IMG/VR virus record: IMGVR_UViG_3300011560_000039
Direction: 5' to 3' (one strand)
From: a virus
Lineage: Duplodnaviria > Heunggongvirae > Uroviricota > Caudoviricetes
Length of the DNA stretch: 24,717 nucleotides
In this document: positions 1,532-19,984 of the stretch, piece after piece
How positions within the stretch are numbered: position 1 is the first letter of the stretch
How the letters are laid out: every line of letters begins with the position of its first letter
The notes under the pieces: model-generated
What the model saw: the letters and a program-made list of their open reading frames with translations, nothing else
What the model was told of the DNA's origin: nothing
Database searches by the model: none
Position numbers and translations under genes: made by a program

Positions 1532-1741
1532 TTAATTTGAATACAATGCAATTCTCGAGGACTGAAGTTTCTCGCAATTAAAATTTATCAGTTTTACTTT
1601 CTGCTCTCTGGAAACGCCTGCTTCTTTTTTACCTGAGAGCATTTTTTCGCATTCTGATTTCGTTAGTTTAGATTTTGAATATCTTGTCCAGTTAGTAGGA
1701 GTGCCACCTTCCTTTTCAATAGTGGCGGTAATTTTATACAT
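1532..1741 (-). CDS. ydaC: Small Rac-type protein YdaC (DUF1187), 69 aa
   Basis: ORF from MYKITATIEKEGG...; overlaps the ralR 3' end by 8 nt; synteny with the Rac early-left operon. Confidence 0.7.
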   Translation of the reverse strand: MYKITATIEKEGGTPTNWTRYSKSKLTKSECEKMLSGKKEAGVSREQKVKLINFNCEKLQSSRIALYSN

Positions 1742-2794: not shown

Positions 2795-5387
2795 TTGCAT
2801 ATTCCTTAGCCCAGCGGGGCAGTGATAATGTCTTAATAGCTGGCCATTCATCGGTATTCAGGCAGTCAGACAGGGTTCGCAGATTGCGGTGATATTCCTG
2901 TTGACCTGCCAGTTTTGCTTCTTCGCCCATCATGAAAATTTCAACCGGATAACGTCCGCATTCAATAGTTGTGCTGGCAACCAGAAAAACGAAAGTTGGC
3001 TGCACTCCAAACTGTGCTTCATAACCGTCACTGTAGAATGCATCCTGAACGTGATAGCGGTAGTCGTAATAAGCGGTTTTGAATCGTTGAATATCCGCCG
3101 TAGTTTTCACGTCCATGATCCAGTGAAATTCAGGGATAATTTTGTCCGGACGGCACCGACACAAAATTCCTGTTTCAGGATCTTCCCAGTAAATTGATGA
3201 TTCAGCGTGTCCGGCGCTTTCAACAAGCCATTGCCCCAGCGGCAAAGCCATAACGCTTTGATACATGAGTTCAATTTTCCGGCCTTCTTCCGCAGTGATA
3301 ACCGTTTTTCCTGTGCTTGCGCATTCCATCAGAAACGCTTTCTCTTCTTCTTTTCCGGCGTTTGTACGGCGGTTAAATTCAGGTGCTACGATAAAGCGGT
3401 TACTGAATTCTTCCGGTTCAAGTACCCGGCAGTGGAAAGCAGTTCCTAAATCGAGCGTTTTTGTCTTTGTGGTGTCCACGGGGGCATTTTTACGCCACAA
3501 ATATAGTGCCGGAGTATCAGCAATGTCATCGAGCTGAGACTTACTGATACCGGGACCCGCGTGGTAATTCTCATTCGAAATTCCGTAATAAATACCTGGC
3601 TCTATGTCTTCTACGATTACGGGATCTGCGACTTCGCCAGTTTCATCACTGCAATCGCGATGCGGATCGCTGCCAGCATTCTCATTGTGCGGATGTTCAG
3701 CGCCTTCCATTTCCTCCGGATCATTTTCCTTAGCTTCAACCTGACTCTCTTCATCGAATGTTTCCTGGTATGTTGCGTCGCCCATCACCGCACCACAGTC
3801 AGGGCAGTTATCCCCGCCAGTCTGGCCGCAGGCATTGCAGGCTATTTCCGGTTCCTGTTGCACTACTGGCTCAGGTTGATTCATATCCGGGCTGGTTTTT
3901 TCCGTTTCTGGCTGGTTCTGGTACACACAATCGCGAGTCTGGATCCCCTTTACCCATTTCGGATCGTTCGGGTCGCTAATTCCGTCAACAAATTCACCAC
4001 GTGATGCAGCAAGCAATTTATCGGCATCGACAGGATTTTTTGATGGAATGTTTTTCCGGGCTTCATGGAGTTCTGCCCGCAGTTCCTGATATTTCGCATC
4101 AACAGAATTTACCTGTGACTGAGCATCCAGCGGCTGCGTGTCCTGATGATGTTCAGTTGCGTCCTGTTCCATTGTTTCAGCCTCTCCCTGTTCAACTGCC
4201 GTTGTTCCAGATGGTTGCGGTTTTTCTTCATCATCCTGTTTTCCTTCTTCTGTTACTCGCTGCGGCATCGGGGCAGAGGAGCGACCGCAGGCAATATCCA
4301 CGATTTCCGGATCAGGGTTGGCATGATCGGTTTCAGTCAGTACTTTGTTCAGATATTCAGTGACGTGCGCGGGGATGACCTCGATCCCAATTGGTGCTTC
4401 TTTTACGGACGCAACCACGATGGCGCGGGAATAATCCAGCCCGCCAGGCATGGTGATGAATTTGTCGCGGAAAACAGAAAAGGGCGGTTTATTTTCAGCG
4501 ATAATTTCCTCAATGCGTTTAGCGTGTGCCGGATGAAGGTTATAGATGTCCAGATCCATTGAACGGGCCAGTACGCCAGTGGCTACGTCGCGCGCCAGTG
4601 ACGTCAGATCGTGTACGAAACCTTCGCCGCGATCGGTGAGGTTTCCGCCGCCAGCATTAGCACCGGAAGCCGTGCGAGTGATGTGTGAAACACGATTACC
4701 CTTCATCCACTCTTTTGTCAGCAGTCCTCGATCGGTGTAGTCAGCGTTCAGGTATGCTTCGAAAAAAGCAGTTATCAGTCCCAGGTTTGAATTACCAGGA
4801 TTAGGGAAAACTTTGTCAGTGTCACGAACCAGTTTGTGGAGTTCGCGAATTTCCAGCGGGTCGAGCAGGCTGGTTTTGTGGGAAACAGCCAGGGCAGTAA
4901 CAGCCGGTAGTTCTTCAGCCCGAGCAATGTGTAATGCCTGGAGTCCGTCGCGTGAAACGTGCGTTACCGGTTTTTCGCTGCCGTGTTGAGCAAGCCAACG
5001 AATGGGCAGTTCCTGGCCAGAAATTGGGAGTAGCATATTCTCCTCAATCTCAGTCATGTCTTCGCCGTTGACGTTGGTATTGCCTTGATAGTGAGCGTTG
5101 TCTGGTGCTGCTCCCGGTTTTAGTTCCCATGTCATGGAGTCTTTGCTGAGTTGATAGCGTTCACTCCAGGTAAAATCGATCTCACCTTCAGCGGGCAGGT
5201 CATTAACGACAGGAAAATTCGTGGCAACAGCTTTAAAATAGCTGCTCAGTTTTTTACCTGACTTAACGATCAGGTAGTCCAGAGTGGCACAGGTCGATTC
5301 AAAATCGTTGCTTGCCCACAGGACGACGTCAGGTTCACCGGATGATTTTTTCGCTTTCCGTAACAGGAAGAGTGGTTTTGTGCTCAT
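2787..5387 (-). CDS. recE: Exodeoxyribonuclease VIII (RecE), 866 aa
   Basis: 866-aa ORF with acidic linker regions; recalled as RecE; directly upstream of recT on the same strand. Confidence 0.9.
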
Positions 5388-5458
5388 TGTTTTTTAACCT
5401 CAACTCAGATTAAAATTCGTTTTGTTCAGTGAATGATCTTGCCGGATACACACTGTTC

Positions 5459-6230: not shown

Positions 6231-6671
6231 AATTATCTCCATTTTTACAAATGAACTTTGTTGATGCGGTGCCTGGTGCCTCCAGGTGACTGCAACCAGT
6301 TAACAATTACAGTCGGCTTTCCCACCCAAACCAATAAGGACTAACATGACTTTTAACTGTGCCACGTGCGCTTAGCCGCATTCACCGCATCACAAAATTC
6401 ACTTTAAAAAGGGCGGACATCAGCCGAACTTCAAGAAAAAAACTGATGCCGCCAGGACTACACACAGCAATGTCGTTATTTACAACCGGAGGCGCACTCC
6501 CACCATTTAAATTTAACAGACAAGACCGACTCTTTATGGATATCGGAAATGCGCCTTCGTGTTGTGCCCGGTTTTATTTCACCACCTCCGGGCTTCGGTG
6601 GTCTCGGCTATACCCCTACAGCGAGAGCTTGTGTTAACATTTCAATACCCTTACAGTTGAGAGTTATTGAT

Positions 6672-7160
6672 ATGTTGGATGTATTTACTCCATTGTTGAA
6701 ATTTTTTGCTAACGAGCCACTCGAAAGACTTATGTATACGATTATCATTTTTGGTCTCACTCTCTGGCTGATACCGAAAGAGTTTACTGTCGCATTCAAT
6801 GCTTATACTGAAATACCTTGGCTCTTTCAGATTATCGTTTTTGCCTTTTCTTTCGTGGTCGCCATTTCCTTCTCAAGATTGCGAGCGCATATTCAAAAGC
6901 ATTATTCATTACTACCAGAGCAACGAGTATTGCTTCGTTTATCTGAGAAAGAAATCGCTGTATTTAAAGATTTCCTTAAAACAGGAAATCTTATTATCAC
7001 TTCTCCTTGCCGTAACCCGGTTATGAAAAAATTAGAACGGAAGGGCATCATTCAACATCAGAGTGATAGCGCAAACTGTTCTTATTATCTCGTCACCGAA
7101 AAATACTCCCATTTTATGAAGTTATTCTGGAACAGCAGGAGTAAACGTTTTAATCGTTAG
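6672..7160 (+). CDS. sieB: Superinfection exclusion protein SieB, 162 aa
   Basis: MLDVFTPLLKFFANEPLERLMYTIIIFGLTLWLIP... with hydrophobic membrane segments; the 203-aa track ORF extends upstream with no ATG or RBS support. Confidence 0.8.
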   Translation: MLDVFTPLLKFFANEPLERLMYTIIIFGLTLWLIPKEFTVAFNAYTEIPWLFQIIVFAFSFVVAISFSRLRAHIQKHYSLLPEQRVLLRLSEKEIAVFKDFLKTGNLIITSPCRNPVMKKLERKGIIQHQSDSANCSYYLVTEKYSHFMKLFWNSRSKRFNR

Positions 7161-11755: not shown

Positions 11756-13825
11756 ATGAAAGGTAATATTCTTGGGGATATCCGAGCTGAACATGACGAA
11801 AAGATGTTGGAAGCTTCATTTTGGCAAACAACTGATTATAAAGCTCTTCTCGAATCCTACGATCGATGCATCATTGTTGGCCGCAGAGGAACAGGAAAAA
11901 GTGCTCTGGTGCATATGCTTTCCAAACATTGGCATGCTAAGCCAAAAACCTATGTGATGACTATTAGTCCGGTTGAAGAACAAATTATTGGATTAAGGGA
12001 TGTTATTTCTTTATTTGGTGAAAATTACTTACATATAAAAGCCGGTAGCAAGTTAGCATGGCGATATGCTATTTATATGGAGCTGCTTTCTGAGATCGCA
12101 AGTCATTACAAGATGAAAAACGATCTTGACTACAAAAGTGTAGAGTCGCATTTATTATCTTGGGGACCGAAGAGACAAAATATAAGTAGCAAAATAAGAA
12201 AAAAATTGAACGCTATTCTCGATGATAACAAAAATATAAAACCAGCTACAAGAATAGCCGAATTATCCGATAAATTTGAACTTGACTTATTGGAAGAGGT
12301 GATAGAAGAAGCAATTTCGAAGTCAAATAATCAATTTGTTATTTTTGCTGATAGGCTTGATGAAGGCTATACACCGGATAATCTTGGTGTTGCAATAGTT
12401 GATGGTTTCATTCAGGCTGTGATTGATATAAAACAAAATATGAATGAAAAGGTTATTGCCTTTGCATTTGTTAGAGATAATATTCATCGAGCCATATCAA
12501 AAATGGACCCTGATTTTACTCGAAATATTGAAGGGCAAGTACTGAGATTACATTGGGATGAATATAACTTGTTTAATCTTGTATGCAATAGAATGAGGGT
12601 CGCTTTTAACTCAACCATTGAGAACAACACGAGGGTGTGGAATGCTTACACCGCAAATGAATTACAGTCTAATACCGGTTTTAAAGAAACATTGAAACTG
12701 ACTCTATATAGGCCAAGAGATATTTTGGTTTTGTTAAATAATGCATTCTTGCGAGCAAACACACATGATCGTAATCGTATTGTCATTGATGACATTCAAG
12801 CAACAGCGAATACTATTTCACAAAATAGACTCAATGATTTGTTAAAAGAATATGAGAATGTATTTCCTGCATTAGATATATTTACATCGCAATTTGCTAA
12901 TAGCAAACCTTACTACAGTGTTTCTGAAGCGTCATCTAAGATACAATATGCCCTTGATCTCAATGGCGTTATTGACAAGATGAAAATGCAGGATTTACTT
13001 CTTTTTGAAGGGCCAATCCAGGTGATTCAACGACTTTACAGTGTTGGATTTATTGGGTTGTATAACCAGCAGTCATCTTCATATGTATTTTGCCATGACG
13101 GTAAGGAACCTGAAAAAGAATTTACACCAGATTCAAAATTGCTATTGCATCCATGCTACTGGCTAGCATTAAGTGTTCATGAATCAGAGATGACTCCCGA
13201 TGCTGCTGATGATATTCATGATGAATATGATATTGAGGTCAGCTCTGTTTCCGAAGAGCAGAGGAAACAACGAATCGGTTCGTTGCTCCAAGAACTACAT
13301 AATATACCTGAAGGACCTGAAGGTGCTGTCGATTTTGAAGCATGGGCGCTCAAAACTATAAAGTTACTATTTGCTACGAATTTAACGAACATTGAGTTGC
13401 ATCCCAATAAAAATGGGTTGCAGCAAAGAGATATTATAGCGACAAATATAGCTGACACTCCAGTTTGGAAGAGAATTCTGACAGATTATCAGACACGGCA
13501 AGTTGTTTTTGAAGTGAAAAACTATAAAACATTAGGTGCTGCAGAATATAGACAGGTAAATTCCTATTTGTTTAAAGACTATGGGCGGATAGCTTTTATC
13601 ATAAATAGAGATCACACAGAGAATTTAGAAAAACATAAAGAGCTTACGTGGGTAAAAGAAATTTATGATAATCATAATAAATTAGTTGTGAAGTTACCCT
13701 CTAAGTTCCTTGAAAGGCATCTGTCAAAAATGAGAAGCCCGCAAAAACATGACGAAGTTAATAAACAATTAGGTAAACTGCTCGATCAGTACATAAGGGT
13801 CTATTTAAATAATAAATGTAAGTAA
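11756..13825 (+). CDS. Cargo protein, 689 aa: N-terminal P-loop NTPase (Walker A GRRGTGKS; Walker B-like VIFADRLDE) with a C-terminal PD-(D/E)xK-like nuclease motif (D..x24..EVK); candidate anti-phage defence or abortive-infection protein
   Basis: Long ORF with RBS; markedly AT-rich compared with flanking Rac genes; motifs read from the translation; occupies a variable position between the replication and nin/Q modules; not recognised as a named family. Confidence 0.85.
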   Translation: MKGNILGDIRAEHDEKMLEASFWQTTDYKALLESYDRCIIVGRRGTGKSALVHMLSKHWHAKPKTYVMTISPVEEQIIGLRDVISLFGENYLHIKAGSKLAWRYAIYMELLSEIASHYKMKNDLDYKSVESHLLSWGPKRQNISSKIRKKLNAILDDNKNIKPATRIAELSDKFELDLLEEVIEEAISKSNNQFVIFADRLDEGYTPDNLGVAIVDGFIQAVIDIKQNMNEKVIAFAFVRDNIHRAISKMDPDFTRNIEGQVLRLHWDEYNLFNLVCNRMRVAFNSTIENNTRVWNAYTANELQSNTGFKETLKLTLYRPRDILVLLNNAFLRANTHDRNRIVIDDIQATANTISQNRLNDLLKEYENVFPALDIFTSQFANSKPYYSVSEASSKIQYALDLNGVIDKMKMQDLLLFEGPIQVIQRLYSVGFIGLYNQQSSSYVFCHDGKEPEKEFTPDSKLLLHPCYWLALSVHESEMTPDAADDIHDEYDIEVSSVSEEQRKQRIGSLLQELHNIPEGPEGAVDFEAWALKTIKLLFATNLTNIELHPNKNGLQQRDIIATNIADTPVWKRILTDYQTRQVVFEVKNYKTLGAAEYRQVNSYLFKDYGRIAFIINRDHTENLEKHKELTWVKEIYDNHNKLVVKLPSKFLERHLSKMRSPQKHDEVNKQLGKLLDQYIRVYLNNKCK

Positions 13826-15113: not shown

Positions 15114-15403
15114 TGGTGAATTTACGTAAAGCGGCTAAAGGCCAGATGTGCCAGATCAGAATCCCTGGCTACTGCAATCACAATCCCGAAACCTCTGTGC
15201 TGGCGCATTACAGGCTGGCGGGGACGTGCGGAACAGCGACAAAACCACACGATATGCAGGCGGCGATAGCCTGTAGCTCATGCCACGATCTAATCGACGG
15301 GCGGGTAAAAACCAGCGATTACACCAAAGAAGAATTGCGCCTGATGCATGCTGAAGGGGTTTTTCGCACACAAGAAATCTGGAGAAAGAAAGGTCATTTA
15401 TGA
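15113..15403 (+). CDS. DUF1364 (YbcO/YnaK-like) Cys/His-rich putative nuclease, 96 aa
   Basis: LRKAAKG.MCQIRIPGYCNHNPETSVLAH...ACSSCHD pattern; ATG overlaps the upstream stop (TAATG). Confidence 0.7.
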   Translation: MVNLRKAAKGQMCQIRIPGYCNHNPETSVLAHYRLAGTCGTATKPHDMQAAIACSSCHDLIDGRVKTSDYTKEELRLMHAEGVFRTQEIWRKKGHL

Positions 15404-15942
15404 TTTACCCAACGAATACAGGAAAAAGCGGAGAACACCTTCGCCTCACCACGCTGGAAAGTGTCTGGATTCAGGGAAAACTACGTATGTGGGGGCGCTG
15501 GTCGTATATTGGCGGTGGCAGGTCAGGGAATATGTTCAATCAGTTGTTGGCATCCAAAAAACTGACGAAAACAGCCATTAATGAAGCCCTGCGCAGAATG
15601 AAAAAAGCGGGAATAGAGAAAGCTGAGCTGGAAGCGTTTTTGCGAGAGATGATCAACGGCAAGCAAAAGAGCTGGCTGGCGCATTGTACTGATGCAGAGG
15701 CGTTATGTATTGATCGAGTCATAAGTGAGGTGCTGGCAGAGCATCCAGGATTGATTTGCATTCTCCGGCAACGCTATGAAGGGCGGGGGATGGCTAAGCG
15801 CAAAATGGCTGAATTGCTAAATGATGCACACCCAGAGTGGTGTTTTAGCACATGCGAAAAACGGATTGCTAATTGGTTAGCTGTTGCTGAGTATGCCCTA
15901 TATATTCCCATGCGTGAATCATTTGCTGAGAAAATGGCTTGA
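15400..15942 (+). CDS. Putative late-gene antiterminator Q (phage 82/21-type), 180 aa
   Basis: Position immediately upstream of a strong terminator and the lysis cassette; Cys-containing C-terminal region; ATG overlaps the upstream stop. Confidence 0.6.
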   Translation: MIYPTNTGKSGEHLRLTTLESVWIQGKLRMWGRWSYIGGGRSGNMFNQLLASKKLTKTAINEALRRMKKAGIEKAELEAFLREMINGKQKSWLAHCTDAEALCIDRVISEVLAEHPGLICILRQRYEGRGMAKRKMAELLNDAHPEWCFSTCEKRIANWLAVAEYALYIPMRESFAEKMA

Positions 15943-16396: not shown

Positions 16397-16987
16397 GGGC
16401 TGGTTTATTGTATGCCAAATGATTATTAAAAAGGTTGTGTTAATAACAAAATCCGAAATAATATGCCTGCATATTTTTATCTTGCTTATATTCTGCATAT
16501 TGTGCATAGCAGGCTCATCCCTGCAATCAAAACTGTATGATGAGTATTTTTTGTTTTCCTTTTTTCCAGTCATCTGATGATGACCTGCTTCTTTTTAATC
16601 CGGATCGACATCAGTTTTTTAAGATAATTCCTGCGAGTTATATGCATAAATACCACAAACTCCGCATTTTATGTGGTTGGGAGTTGCCGGGCGCGCAGTG
16701 AGTTTGCTAAGAAAACTCCTGCATGGTGAATCCCCCTGTGCGGTGGGGTGATACCATTAACCTTTTCTGTCGCCGACAGGTATCACGAACATTTTGTTCA
16801 CCGGGAGGCACCCGGCACCATGCACTTCAATAGATTCTCTCCACATTATGGATATTCTTTCAGAATATCCCACGCAGACTTTGTGTAAATGTTAACAAAT
16901 GTGCGTTTTATTTGATCTGATTCGCTGTTTGAGCGTCCAAAACAACGGTATATATAATCCTTTACTATATGACATATGTGAGGAAAA

Positions 16988-17416
16988 ATGGGTTTTCGTA
17001 GCGCATCAATTCTTACGTTGATTATTAGTGGGATTATTATCGGGTGCACTGATGCTGTATCGACAAATTATCATGACCGTACATCATATTACTCCGATAA
17101 AGCAATAGAGACACAGTATGTGAGTTCATCTGAACGTACTTCTGATGTTAGTGAGGATATCCGTCTGTATGCCCATCAAATCAAGAGCGCCATCGAAAAA
17201 CAGTTCGGGGATGCGAGTAAGTATTCAGGAAAAGAGTGTACACTGAGAATGCATATGGCCCCGAATGGCCTTCTACTGGAGGTTAAAAGAGAAAGTGGAG
17301 ACCTCGATTTATGTCGTGAAGCGATGAATGCGATAAAGAATGCTGATATACCTGCCCCCCCTTCGCCGGAAGTATATAAAGTATTTCAAAATGGGGTGCT
17401 GGATTTTAAACCCTGA
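16988..17416 (+). CDS. Lipoprotein with TolA C-terminal domain III homology (moron), 142 aa
   Basis: Signal peptide plus lipobox IIIGC; C-terminus QIKSAIEKQFGDASKYSGKECTLRMHMAPNGLLLEVK...IPAPPSPEVYKVFQNGVLDFKP parallels the recalled TolA C-terminus (...GKTCTLRIKLAPDGMLLDIK...IPKPPSQAVYEVFKNAPLDFKP); GAGGAAAA RBS. Confidence 0.8.
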   Translation: MGFRSASILTLIISGIIIGCTDAVSTNYHDRTSYYSDKAIETQYVSSSERTSDVSEDIRLYAHQIKSAIEKQFGDASKYSGKECTLRMHMAPNGLLLEVKRESGDLDLCREAMNAIKNADIPAPPSPEVYKVFQNGVLDFKP

Positions 17417-17566
17417 TATTTATTGTTTTGTAATAAACGGTTTCGGCTTAGGTTTGTTCTGACACAGCTACGGCACTGAGCTAAATTTAGCGGATAGTCA
17501 GCTCTGAGCCAGTGGCGGACGTAACAACTACTATTGCTGAGATTTTAATGGATTGAGGAGCAAGAA

Positions 17567-17962
17567 GTGGGATTAAAGAAAATCGTTATGTTGACTTTTT
17601 GGGTCGGTTTTGTTGCGGGATGCACACCTTTACACCCTTCAGATTGCCACAAAACTACTGCTACAGGTAGTTGCAGTTCAGGACGCTGGGATGATCAGGA
17701 TGAATGGGGGGCGCAAGCGCGGGGAATCAGAGCTGCAATTAATGCCAAACTTGATGAGCCGCATAACTGGAAAGGGAAAAAATGCAGGTTGCATATGGAA
17801 TTCTCTCAGGATGGCACGGCGTTAAAAATATCTACCAGTAACGGTGATAAAGCCTATTGCGAAGCGATAAAGTCCGCAGCTCATAAAGCCAAATTTCCGG
17901 CCTTCAACAATCCGGAAGTCTACAGAGATTTTCAGAAATCTGGCTTTGACATGCGAGGTTAG
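17567..17962 (+). CDS. Second, divergent TolA domain III-like lipoprotein (GTG start), 131 aa
   Basis: Signal peptide MGLKKIVMLTFWVGFVAGC with lipobox; C-terminal GKKCRLHMEFSQDGTALKIS...FPAFNNPEVYRDFQKSGFD is paralogous to the upstream gene; GAGGAG RBS before GTG. Confidence 0.75.
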   Translation: MGLKKIVMLTFWVGFVAGCTPLHPSDCHKTTATGSCSSGRWDDQDEWGAQARGIRAAINAKLDEPHNWKGKKCRLHMEFSQDGTALKISTSNGDKAYCEAIKSAAHKAKFPAFNNPEVYRDFQKSGFDMRG

Positions 17963-18087
17963 CTCTTCAATTACTATATCTCATTCATAGCAAACTGACA
18001 GATTTGATGATGTTCTATATACGAAACCTGTGATGTCAAGTCTGAGCTAATACAAATAAACATAATATCAGAGAAATACATTTTATT

Positions 18088-18109
18088 AGCTCGCTACGGC
18101 GAGCTTTTT
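18088..18109 (+). terminator. Rho-independent terminator between the moron lipoproteins and the holin (AGCTCGC-TACG-GCGAGCT, then TTTTAT)
   Basis: Perfect 7-bp stem plus T-run. Confidence 0.7.
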
Positions 18110-18213
18110 ATATTGCATCGTCTCCAGCATATATATCAATTAAGGCTCTGATTGATGTGTCTGAAAGCCTACACATAATAACTATGCCATCCGTTCCGTG
18201 CGGAGGTGAGGCT

Positions 18214-18429
18214 ATGAAATCCATGGACAAAATTTCAACAGGCATTGCCTACGGCACCTCCGCAGGCAGTGCTGGCTACTGGTTTTTACAGTTGCTCGAT
18301 AGAGTAACTCCGTCACAGTGGGCTGCAATCGGTGTGCTGGGTAGTCTGGTATTTGGCCTACTGACGTACCTGACAAACCTTTATTTCAAGATTAAAGAAG
18401 ATAAGCGCAAGGCTGCGAGAGGTGAATAA
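18214..18429 (+). CDS. Phage-21-type pinholin S with dual start MKSM (antiholin/holin), 71 aa
   Basis: [26 protein letters not shown]...[19 protein letters not shown]; GGAGGTGAG Shine-Dalgarno; the 90-aa track ORF extends upstream. Confidence 0.85.
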
Positions 18430-18757
18430 TGCCTCCANNNNNNNNNNNNNNNNNNNNNNNNNNNNNNNNNNNNNNNNNNNNNNNNNNNNNNNCCTTGCCA
18501 CTGTCGCCAGACAAATTAACCCGTACATCAAAGTCGATATACCGGAAACAACGCGCGGCGCTCTTTACTCATTCGTTTACAACGTGGGTGCTGGCAATTT
18601 CAGAACATCGACGCTTCTTCGCAAAATAAACCAGGGCGATATCAAAGGCGCATGTGATCAGCTACGTCGCTGGACATATGCTGGCGGTAAGCAATGGAAA
18701 GGTCTCATGACTCGTCGTGAGATTGAGCGTGAAATCTGTTTGTGGGGTCAGCAATGA
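18429..18757 (+). CDS. SAR endolysin (phage-21 R-type lysozyme), interrupted by an assembly gap; N-terminal part missing
   Basis: C-terminal 87 aa [27 protein letters not shown]...ICLWGQQ; expected ATG at 18429 (MPP...) overlaps the holin stop but is out of frame with the C-terminal segment across the N-run. Confidence 0.8.
18438..18492. other. Assembly gap (55 N)
   Basis: Run of N; the frame mismatch across it shows the true length is unknown. Confidence 0.99.
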
Positions 18758-19215
18758 ACAGAGTAACCGCGATTATCTCCGCTCTGGTTATCTGCATCGT
18801 CGTCTGCCTGTCATGGGGTGTTAATCATTACCGTGATAACGCCATCGCCTACAAAGAACAGCGCGACAAAAATGCCAGAGAACTGAAGCTGGCGAACGCG
18901 GCAATTACTGACATGCAGATGCGTCAGCGTGATGTTGCTGCGCTCGATGCAAAATACACGAAGGAGTTAGCTGATGCGAAAGCTGAAAATGATGCTCTGC
19001 GTGATGATGTTGCCGCTGGTCGTCGTCGGTTGCACATCAAAGCAGTCTGTCAGTCAGTGCGTGAAGCCACCACCGCCTCCGGCGTGGATAATGCAGCCTC
19101 CCCCCGACTGGCAGACACCGCTGAACGGGATTATTTCACCCTCAGAGAGAGGCTGATCACGATGCAAAAACAACTGGAAGGAACCCAGAAGTATATTAAT
19201 GAGCAGTGCAGATAG
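18754..19215 (+). CDS. i-spanin Rz, 153 aa
   Basis: N-terminal transmembrane segment and coiled-coil-like body; ATG overlaps the endolysin stop (ATGA). Confidence 0.85.
18974..19156 (+). CDS. o-spanin Rz1 lipoprotein embedded in Rz (+1 frame), 60 aa
   Basis: Lipobox VVVGC and a proline-rich body ([15 protein letters not shown]); entirely inside Rz. Confidence 0.85.
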
Positions 19216-19246: not shown

Positions 19247-19540
19247 TTATTGTGAGCAATACACACGCGCTTCCAGCGGAGTATAAATGCCTAAAGTAAT
19301 AAAACCGAGCAATCCATTTACGAATGTTTGCTGGGTTTCTGTTTTAACAACATTTTCTGCGCCGCCACAAATTTTGGCTGCATCAACAGTTTTCTCCTGT
19401 CCAATTCCCGAAACGAAGAAATGATGGGTGATGGTTTCCTTTGGTGTTACTGCTGTCGGTTTGTTTCCAACAGTAAACGTCTGTTGAGCACATCCTGTAA
19501 TAAGCATTGCCAGAGCGGCAGAAAACAACATTTTTTTCAT
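19247..19540 (-). CDS. bor: Bor/Iss-family outer-membrane lipoprotein, 97 aa
   Basis: MKKMLFSAALAMLITGCAQQTFTV... with lipobox LITGC; opposite strand to the lysis genes, as for lambda bor. Confidence 0.85.
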   Translation of the reverse strand: MKKMLFSAALAMLITGCAQQTFTVGNKPTAVTPKETITHHFFVSGIGQEKTVDAAKICGGAENVVKTETQQTFVNGLLGFITLGIYTPLEARVYCSQ

Positions 19541-19984
19541 CTTATTATCCTGCATTGTTAAAAACGGCAGAATCCTATGTGACAACAATTAAACGATAGT
19601 TAAATGGATTGATGAAAATTAAAACTATATAGGTGGATGCTCAGCCTATTGGAGGAGGGGGGGGGCACTCAGAATCCTGTGGAATGAAATAAACCGCTCT
19701 ATCTGTTCATTACCCTTTTAGCAGCGCTGTATCGTCGCCGTATTCCCGCATTAACCATGACCGTAGCCCGACGGGGAATTCCTTCTGCGTGAGTGTGCGG
19801 GAATAATCAAAAACGATGCACACCGGGTTTTTACCGCGTTTATGGTTCGCGGGGGTGTCCCTCATGCTCGCCAGTCCTGTGCGGGGGTGGAAGAAACAGG
19901 ACGTGTATTCAGGTCTGTGTGACTGTGGTCGCAAGACTTTTGTCGTTCAGCTATTAAATCCCATTACGAAGTAGACCAGAACGG

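Follow-up and report, generated by a model that had tools for sequence, protein, structure and literature searches.

Two adjacent genes of a Rac-type lambdoid (lambda-like) Escherichia coli prophage, here called A and B, encode small predicted lipoproteins that belong to the TolA C-terminal domain family but are not full-length TolA. The prophage is represented by IMG/VR record IMGVR_UViG_3300011560_000039 (24,717 nucleotides; "the window" denotes this whole stretch of DNA), in which both genes lie on the plus strand between a Q-like antiterminator gene and the lysis genes. The tip domain of TolA is the periplasmic handle that colicins and filamentous phages use for cell entry. From their sequences, A and B may quite possibly, and more plausibly than under any other reading considered, serve as decoys that compete with this domain (TolA domain III, TolAIII) of the host for phage and colicin ligands. 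The two genes are as follows.

16988..17416, plus strand: gene A, 142-residue predicted lipoprotein; Cys20 at 17045-17047, disordered linker at residues 21-~50, TolAIII at residues 55-142 (17150-17413)
17567..17962, plus strand: gene B, 131-residue predicted lipoprotein; Cys19 at 17621-17623, Cys-rich N-terminal motif at residues 20-48 (17624-17710), TolAIII at residues 50-129 (17714-17953)

Homology to TolA and lipoprotein export signals

Both proteins matched the Pfam family PF06519 (TolA C-terminal), A with 82.6 bits (E 2.4e-23) and B with 54.6 bits (E 1.3e-14), against a gathering threshold of 25 bits. When we compared them with PDB sequences by phmmer, residues 55-142 of A aligned to TolA 334-421 (E 5e-28) and residues 50-129 of B to TolA 340-419 (E 5e-9), in each case with zero gaps. 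A is identical to E. coli TolA at 52/88 positions (59%) and B at 27/80 (34%), while the two proteins share 29% identity. The cysteines C363 and C388, which form the disulfide of TolA, are kept as the predicted pairs C84/C109 in A and C73/C98 in B, and this pair is found in 15/15 sequences of the A family and in at least 119/120 of the B family. A similarity confined to low-complexity sequence is thus ruled out, as the alignments are gapless and cover the whole domain, including the core cysteines.

We also modeled both proteins with AlphaFold2, which gave block-mean predicted local distance difference test (pLDDT) values of ~81-95 for A 51-142 and 82-96 for B 41-131, while the N-terminal tethers were of low confidence. 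The predicted fold of A and B is the alpha/beta fold of TolAIII, with a long helix, a three-stranded sheet, a second helix and a C-terminal strand. Indeed, Foldseek placed the model of A on the TolAIII chain of 2X9A (2X9A_B) with a root-mean-square deviation (rmsd) of 0.6 Å and a template modeling (TM) score of 0.96, and that of B on 3QDP with an rmsd of 1.1 Å and a TM score of 0.92. A and B therefore share a homologous domain, its fold and its disulfide cysteines with E. coli TolAIII (~334-421; PDB 1TOL, 1S62, 2X9A, 3QDP, 3QDR).

In contrast to TolA, both proteins carry a lipoprotein signal peptide and a short tether in place of the N-terminal transmembrane anchor, which couples TolA to TolQ and TolR, and of the long helical domain II, and thus have no coupling to TolQR or the proton-motive force. 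The full-length TolA profile NF007065 covers only positions 293-386 of 387 in A and 304-382 in B, with scores of 107.8 and 53.7 bits, both under the equivalog cut-off of 213 bits. Lacking the anchor and domain II, and scoring below the equivalog cut-off, neither protein is TolA itself. A does exceed the laxer cut-off of TIGR02794 (75.6 vs 59.45), which probably explains the 'partial tolA' label that it bears in RefSeq.

The export signals of A and B follow the PROSITE-type (PS51257-type) lipoprotein rule, with K/R in the n-region, a hydrophobic core free of charged residues, and a lipobox, here defined as [LVI][ASTVI][GAS]C whose Cys falls at position 15-35. The signal peptide of A has R4 and the lipobox IIGC ending in Cys20, and that of B has K4, K5 and the lipobox VAGC ending in Cys19. 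Of 120 cluster representatives of the B family, 111 keep the lipobox, as do most full-length members of the A family. At position +2 both proteins have Thr, and Asp was never seen there in either family. The E. coli Lol +2 rule predicts that A and B are sorted to the outer membrane, and because residue +2 is Thr and not Asp, placement in its inner leaflet is most likely.

These results bear out most of the initial annotation, which had noticed lipoprotein signal peptides with lipoboxes on both proteins and a resemblance of their C-terminal parts to TolA domain III, and had described the two as divergent paralogues, as their 29% identity confirms. The alignment to TolA that it proposed as a check shows real homology across the domain, including both disulfide cysteines. 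Its phrase "C-terminal halves" was right as to the similarity but understated the extent, the domain amounting to ~60% of each mature protein, and its term "mimics" has to be replaced, since A and B are true homologues of TolAIII and not convergent.

Both genes are under purifying selection. For gene A, the ratio of nonsynonymous to synonymous substitution rates (dN/dS), obtained with variants 66% and 91% identical, was 0.09-0.34 in the TolA domain and 0.4-0.8 in the signal peptide and linker, and for gene B it was 0.11 over 306 pairs (27 sequences from different species). Gene A starts at ATG 16988 with GAGGA just 5', and gene B at GTG 17567 with GAGGAG just 5'. RefSeq, which we compared at locus L001 (17457-17717 for A and 17889-18263 for B), treats them otherwise: its PGAP pipeline labels A a partial tolA pseudogene ('tolA, incomplete; missing N-terminus'), and it starts B at the internal ATG 17588, so that the signal peptide loses its charged Lys-Lys n-region. 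Neither annotation seems correct in view of the Shine-Dalgarno sites, the conservation of the lipobox and the dN/dS values, and the pseudogene label on A and the late start of B are points of practical use for annotation.

The PGAP label would fit a reading in which the genes are functionless, decaying fragments of a captured tolA gene, as would the frameshifted A variants found at a poly-C tract.

17355..17361, plus strand: poly-C(7) tract in gene A, the site where frameshifted variants arise

At this tract the variants P0135 and P0130 shift into a +1-frame tail (LRRKYIKYF...), but they are a small minority by cluster size, and intact forms dominate the clusters (520 + 57 members vs few tens frameshifted). 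Furthermore, A has its own Shine-Dalgarno sequence, ATG and complete lipoprotein signal peptide, the last absent from TolA, and the dN/dS values are low for its domain between variants 66-91% identical and for B across genera. We thus regard decay as highly improbable, and for A the signal-peptide and dN/dS data effectively refute the pseudogene reading. The database variants of the tract have C6 or C9, which could reflect slipped-strand on/off switching or homopolymer errors in short-read assemblies.

Comparison of A and B at the ligand sites of TolA

We then compared A and B with TolAIII at its known ligand sites. The beta3/alpha2 groove of TolAIII binds TolB, g3p-N1 and colicin N (ColN) by beta-strand addition (PMC4339652; PMC7391070), with affinities of ~1 uM for ColN, 1-15 uM for g3p-N1 and ~40 uM for TolB (PMC4339652), and the TolA substitutions D418P and K420P abolish the binding of all three and result in a tol phenotype (PMC4339652). 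Colicin A uses the opposite beta2 edge, comprising 375-LLDIKP-380 together with K368, L392 and K396 (PMC3365938). Filamentous phages specific for the I-pilus and the F-pilus use TolAIII as co-receptor (PDB 2X9A, 1TOL).

As a result, A was found to keep 13/16 of the tested positions of the groove for TolB, g3p and ColN. All seven alpha2 residues (D, I, Y, A, I, K, I) are kept, as are F, L, D, F, K and P of beta3, including D418 and K420, so that alpha2 and the C-terminal beta3 strand, with its terminal LDFKP, are nearly identical to those of E. coli TolA. At the colicin A site, 4/9 residues of A are identical and 3 are conservative changes, most of the colicin A box being retained. B, which differs from TolAIII at both sites, keeps 5/12 groove positions and 2/9 positions of the colicin A site, with all three cation-pi lysines replaced, and its own residues at these positions are conserved within the B family.

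B also differs from TolAIII in an N-terminal motif, C-(A/T)PLHPS-x-CHKTTATGSCSSGRWDDQDEWG, which occupies residues 20-48, is specific to the family and contains two extra cysteines. AlphaFold2 gives this motif a pLDDT <50, and it is probably disulfide-bonded. Its dN/dS is 0.10 vs 0.12 for the TolA domain of B, and mature B has 113 residues in all 27 sequences. Given the groove residues of A, and the diverged sites and constrained N-terminal motif of B, A appears to be a faithful copy of the TolA ligand surfaces and B a specialised derivative. With a conserved Cys motif as constrained as its TolA domain, B would seem to be more than a passive copy of TolA. The initial annotation had suggested different ligand specificities for the two copies, and this is probable on the same comparison; it had also cited direct binding between TolA and Pal, which is now disputed (PMC7391070).

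The proposed decoy mechanism would proceed as follows. A and B would be exported via Sec and Lol, and would hang from the inner leaflet of the outer membrane by a ~30-residue tether, displaying a free TolA domain III in the periplasm. Since they have neither the TolA anchor nor domain II, they could not couple to TolQR, transmit force or transduce energy, which would leave binding as their activity. The tethered domain would capture g3p N1 and the translocation domains of group A colicins and related bacteriocins, which dock by beta-strand addition, and hold them near the outer membrane, so that they never reach energised TolA, import stalls and the carrier cell gains tolerance. A should bind the ligands of TolA at the beta3/alpha2 groove, and probably also colicin A at beta2, whereas B probably has a different partner because of its remodelled surface and its extra conserved N-terminal motif. 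As the parasitic ligands bind TolAIII ~3-40x tighter than TolB does, modest expression of a decoy could protect the cell without abolishing Tol-Pal function.

An experimental precedent may exist for A. Levengood-Freyermuth, Click and Webster (J Bacteriol 1993) reportedly found that E. coli cells exporting TolA III alone to the periplasm became leaky and withstood both group A colicins and filamentous phage. Such a free domain, competing with native TolA, would be a direct experimental analogue of the role proposed for A, although the engineered domain was soluble and heavily over-produced, whereas A and B are natural and predicted to be lipid-anchored.

Relatives on prophages, plasmids and chromosomes

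The cassette that contains both genes was present as a whole in 771/5,426 complete E. coli genomes (14%). The A family is essentially limited to E. coli and Shigella, to which the A+B tandem is also specific, and each gene occurs alone as well. Gene A lies between the Q antiterminator and holin genes in every case examined, sometimes without B. The A-type variants 66% and 91% identical (loci L045-L052, gene at 5001-5429) occupy the same Q-holin slot in other lambdoid prophages, with no B, and some A-type variants adjoin AraC-type regulators, PmrD-like genes or nanS-p-like esterase genes. In the phage GenBank collection, mEp460_ev081 was the only record carrying either gene.

The B family comprises 370 clusters and extends to Citrobacter, Enterobacter, Klebsiella, Raoultella, Serratia, Leclercia and other genera. 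Among 30 species genomes, B was a single gene except at one Shigella locus, and no shared synteny was found around it. In Enterobacter it lies in a non-phage chromosomal neighbourhood of housekeeping-type genes, and in Serratia in a non-phage chromosomal locus adjoining nrdDG and GmrSD/HEPN genes. B was also found on 607 plasmids, of which 259 are conjugative; pO157 and IncK/I types are among the 607. On pO157 the encoded protein, WP_001453090.1, shares 88% identity with B; on a pO157-type plasmid (L003, 5815-6246) the B-type gene lies near psiB/psiA/hok, upstream of toxB, and on the IncK2/Z conjugative plasmid pSH286-2 (L043, 6965-7396) a B-type gene, 88% identical, directly follows the relaxase genes nikA-nikB.

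Further relatives are carried by Klebsiella plasmids. The 10-kb ColRNAI bacteriocin plasmids, common in Klebsiella and exemplified by K. pneumoniae p1_020030 (NZ_CP028788.2; L002, 4908-5641), encode a TolAIII lipoprotein with the lipobox LLTAC and the C-terminus NAPLDFRP; its gene is followed, with overlapping stop and start codons, by one for a Sec-exported protein with a TonB_C domain, and the pair adjoins a colicin-like tRNase/immunity/lysis operon. On the Klebsiella IncF plasmid pCuAs (K. pneumoniae, NZ_CP006663.1; L044, 5229-6258), the gene of another TolAIII lipoprotein lies just downstream of that of a periplasmic thioredoxin-fold protein (CVYC motif), which may be a dedicated disulfide-forming helper. 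Across the ColRNAI and IncF plasmids, the C-termini of these lipoproteins read NAPLDFRP or AALDFRL. The plasmid proteins (B-type on pO157, IncK and IncI; others on ColRNAI and IncF) are thus like A and B in being lipoproteins with a TolAIII domain, all of them uncharacterised, and differ from them in setting, that is, after a relaxase gene, near psiB/psiA, by a bacteriocin operon with a TonB C-terminal-domain partner, or by a thioredoxin-fold protein.

A filter-free search of 1.84 billion representative proteins returned 333 relatives. Among the best 146 new representatives, 69 were stand-alone proteins of 100-175 residues, at least 40 of which have a strict lipobox and several others Sec signal peptides. 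Judged by these sequences, stand-alone exported TolAIII domains appear to form a large class, for no member of which we found a published characterisation.

The genomic context favours an import-blocking or decoy role. The decoy reading is supported by the ligand groove that A retains and by the bacteriocin plasmids that pair a TolAIII protein with a TonB C-terminal-domain protein, as the obvious function shared by these two domains is that of import handles for bacteriocins and phages, and they have little else in common. It is further supported by the occurrence of B on plasmids from conjugative families, as it is through such pili that cells become exposed to filamentous phages, which use TolAIII. 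A broader form of this proposal is possible, if doubtful: exported, untethered TolAIII and TonB C-terminal domains might constitute a widespread, unrecognised class of tolerance factors on prophages and on conjugative, virulence (pO157) and bacteriocin plasmids, sequestering the import epitopes of bacteriocins from both groups A and B as well as those of pilus-specific filamentous phages, with paralogues like A and B tuned to different invaders.

Several observations weigh against the decoy role. TolA-identical residues are only marginally enriched at the groove of A (13/16 vs 35/63, Fisher p = 0.09). The location of the cassette in the late operon, directly 5' of the lysis genes, means that the strongest expression may come after induction, when protection from colicins is useless. 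The intact TolB groove predicted for A should also compete for TolB, so that harm to Tol-Pal is conceivable. B seems to fit a dedicated anti-invader decoy less well, as it has lost most of the side chains that contact ligands in TolA and also occurs in ordinary chromosomal neighbourhoods. Finally, PADLOC had no match or model for A or B.

The properties of B raise another explanation, namely that B, and possibly A, is an accessory outer-membrane lipoprotein with an envelope role of its own outside the known ligands of TolA, which mobile elements carry as cargo. The invariant mature length and the equal constraint on N-terminal motif and domain would be consistent with such a role, as would contact residues that are unlike those of TolA yet conserved within the family. 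B also stands alone in the 29 other species' genomes, with no conserved synteny, among housekeeping-type genes in Enterobacter and near nrdDG and GmrSD/HEPN in Serratia, and short stand-alone TolA-domain proteins are numerous. On the other hand, no gene neighbourhood points to an alternative partner, and the patchy, mobile distribution is typical of conflict genes and less so of core envelope functions. Moreover, beta-strand addition rests largely on backbone contacts, so that diverged side chains are compatible with TolA-type ligands (PMC3365938). We consider an independent envelope role rather unlikely.

With regard to known systems, A and B resemble in their proposed ecological role the exclusion lipoproteins T5 Llp, phi80/N15 Cor, F TraT and S. 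thermophilus Ltp, which are likewise small, envelope-acting products of accessory genes on mobile elements, and which guard their carrier against incoming phages (bioRxiv 10.64898/2026.03.26.714494; PMC3952083). There is, however, no sequence relationship, and neither A nor B matched any described defence or exclusion family. Whereas the exclusion lipoproteins block an outer-membrane receptor (e.g. FhuA) or DNA injection, A and B would act by imitation of a co-receptor in the periplasm, and we found no description of such an exclusion mechanism in the searchable literature. Nor did that literature yield a functional study of TolA-domain proteins encoded by phages or plasmids; they were mentioned only as entries in gene lists (PMC6854850) and, in the case of a 'TolA' from a Cronobacter prophage, in a speculative remark (PMC2833190). 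A and B both match PHROG 5772 ('unknown function'), and the domain already bears a name in automated annotation ('cell envelope integrity TolA C-terminal domain-containing protein'). The TolA homology itself is therefore not new, while neither the function proposed here nor the extent of the class seems to have been described in the literature that could be searched.

If A and B are decoys, they would represent a new principle in envelope immunity encoded by mobile elements, in which a co-receptor is imitated, as opposed to a surface receptor being blocked. Given their frequency (14% of complete E. coli genomes and ~600 plasmids, with related genes on epidemic Klebsiella bacteriocin plasmids), these genes could influence the conflicts that gut bacteria wage with colicins and klebicins. 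Further effects could fall on how well engineered bacteriocins and filamentous-phage tools work, and on how costly conjugative pili are to carry.

The moron cassette and its prophage setting

A gene map of the window, drawn from open reading frames (ORFs) and from profile and Rfam matches, gave the order integrase, RalR/RalA toxin-antitoxin, RecT, RecE, SieB, YdaS/YdaT and replication genes, then NinB, an HNH/YbcO-like gene, the Q-like antiterminator, genes A and B, holin, endolysin and Rz/Rz1, and finally Bor on the opposite strand, followed by lambda-type terminase and portal genes. The features around A and B are as follows.

15400..15942, plus strand: Q-like antiterminator (DUF1133), upstream flank; phrog_753, E 4e-79; RefSeq: DUF1133 family protein
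16803..18150, plus strand: moron cassette with both genes; left junction ~16803, right end at least 18150
16929..16958, plus strand: sigma-70-like promoter candidate TTGAGC-18-TATAAT; consensus scan, 10/12 matches
18088..18105, plus strand: intrinsic-terminator-like hairpin and T-run between gene B and holin; 7-bp stem with 5 G-C pairs, then TTTTT
18157..19215, plus strand: lysis cassette (holin, endolysin, Rz/Rz1), downstream flank

The cassette has a G+C content of 0.416 vs 0.49-0.54 for the flanking phage genes. In phage mEp460_ev081 it is 99.9% identical over 1,354 bp but stands behind a different Q gene, and a comparison of uropathogenic E. coli (UPEC) genomes lists a phage-borne variable block of 1,355 bp with 'TolA protein, hypothetical protein' (PMC6854850). 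The cassette is thus a discrete insertion between conserved phage genes, variable in its presence and deviant in base composition, as a phage moron is. The promoter candidate lies within the conserved cassette, 30 nt 5' of the start of gene A, and the terminator-like hairpin is conserved in the mEp460_ev081 copy; both sites are consensus-level matches only. Together with the low G+C, this predicted architecture is typical of morons, and as the cassette, being downstream of the STnc100 match described below, is located in the late operon, Q-dependent read-through after induction is also likely to be expected. The initial annotation had called both genes prophage morons, which holds for their setting here, but B is not specifically a prophage gene, occurring also on plasmids and at non-phage chromosomal loci.

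The position of the cassette bears on a further explanation, the main rival of the decoy reading, in which A especially interferes with Tol-Pal for the benefit of the element, by sequestering the TolB N-terminus at the outer membrane and blocking the removal of TolB from Pal by energised TolA. The outer membrane would then be less firmly linked to peptidoglycan, and a partial tol phenotype (leakiness, hypervesiculation, easier lysis) would result, so that the genes would be accessories of lysis and release, or vesiculation factors in lysogens. Over-production of TolA III in the periplasm is in fact used to make E. coli leaky. The slot between Q and holin is that of other late-expressed morons, and A keeps the TolB-binding beta3 strand with D418 and K420, whose mutation in TolA leads to a full tol phenotype (PMC4339652), while tol-pal defects cause leakage and copious vesicles (PMC7391070). 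However, the affinity between TolA and TolB is weak (~40 uM), so that high copy numbers would be required, and the promoter- and terminator-like signals of the cassette suggest expression independent of lysis. In addition, the plasmid and chromosomal homologues have no lysis to help, and weakening of the outer membrane leaves the pairing with TonB C-terminal domains on bacteriocin plasmids unexplained. Interference with Tol-Pal is therefore unlikely in our estimate, if still worth serious consideration; were it the case, outer-membrane stability and vesiculation would have natural regulators in A and B.

Some minor observations were made on the surrounding prophage. Between the Q-like gene and the cassette, and overlapping the left edge of the latter, lies an Rfam match to the small RNA (sRNA) family STnc100 (16691-16877, plus strand; 86.6 bits vs a gathering score of 47), which may correspond to a short leader RNA made from the late promoter; within this match region, at ~16849-16869, there is a perfect hairpin of 8 bp (GGATATTC...GAATATCC). 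In the lysis cassette, the endolysin gene is partly masked by 55 N at 18438-18492, so that in ORF lists its ORF looks interrupted or cut short. The prophage has further accessory functions, namely the RalA antitoxin sRNA (1557-1735, plus strand; 225 bits), the superinfection exclusion gene SieB (6549-7160, plus strand) and the outer-membrane lipoprotein gene Bor (19247-19588, minus strand). Finally, an ORF of 689 residues in the nin region (11756-13825, plus strand) gave weak matches to AAA_16 and ORC-CDC6-like ATPases and a match to phrog_13260 (unknown function), and may be a defence-type moron.

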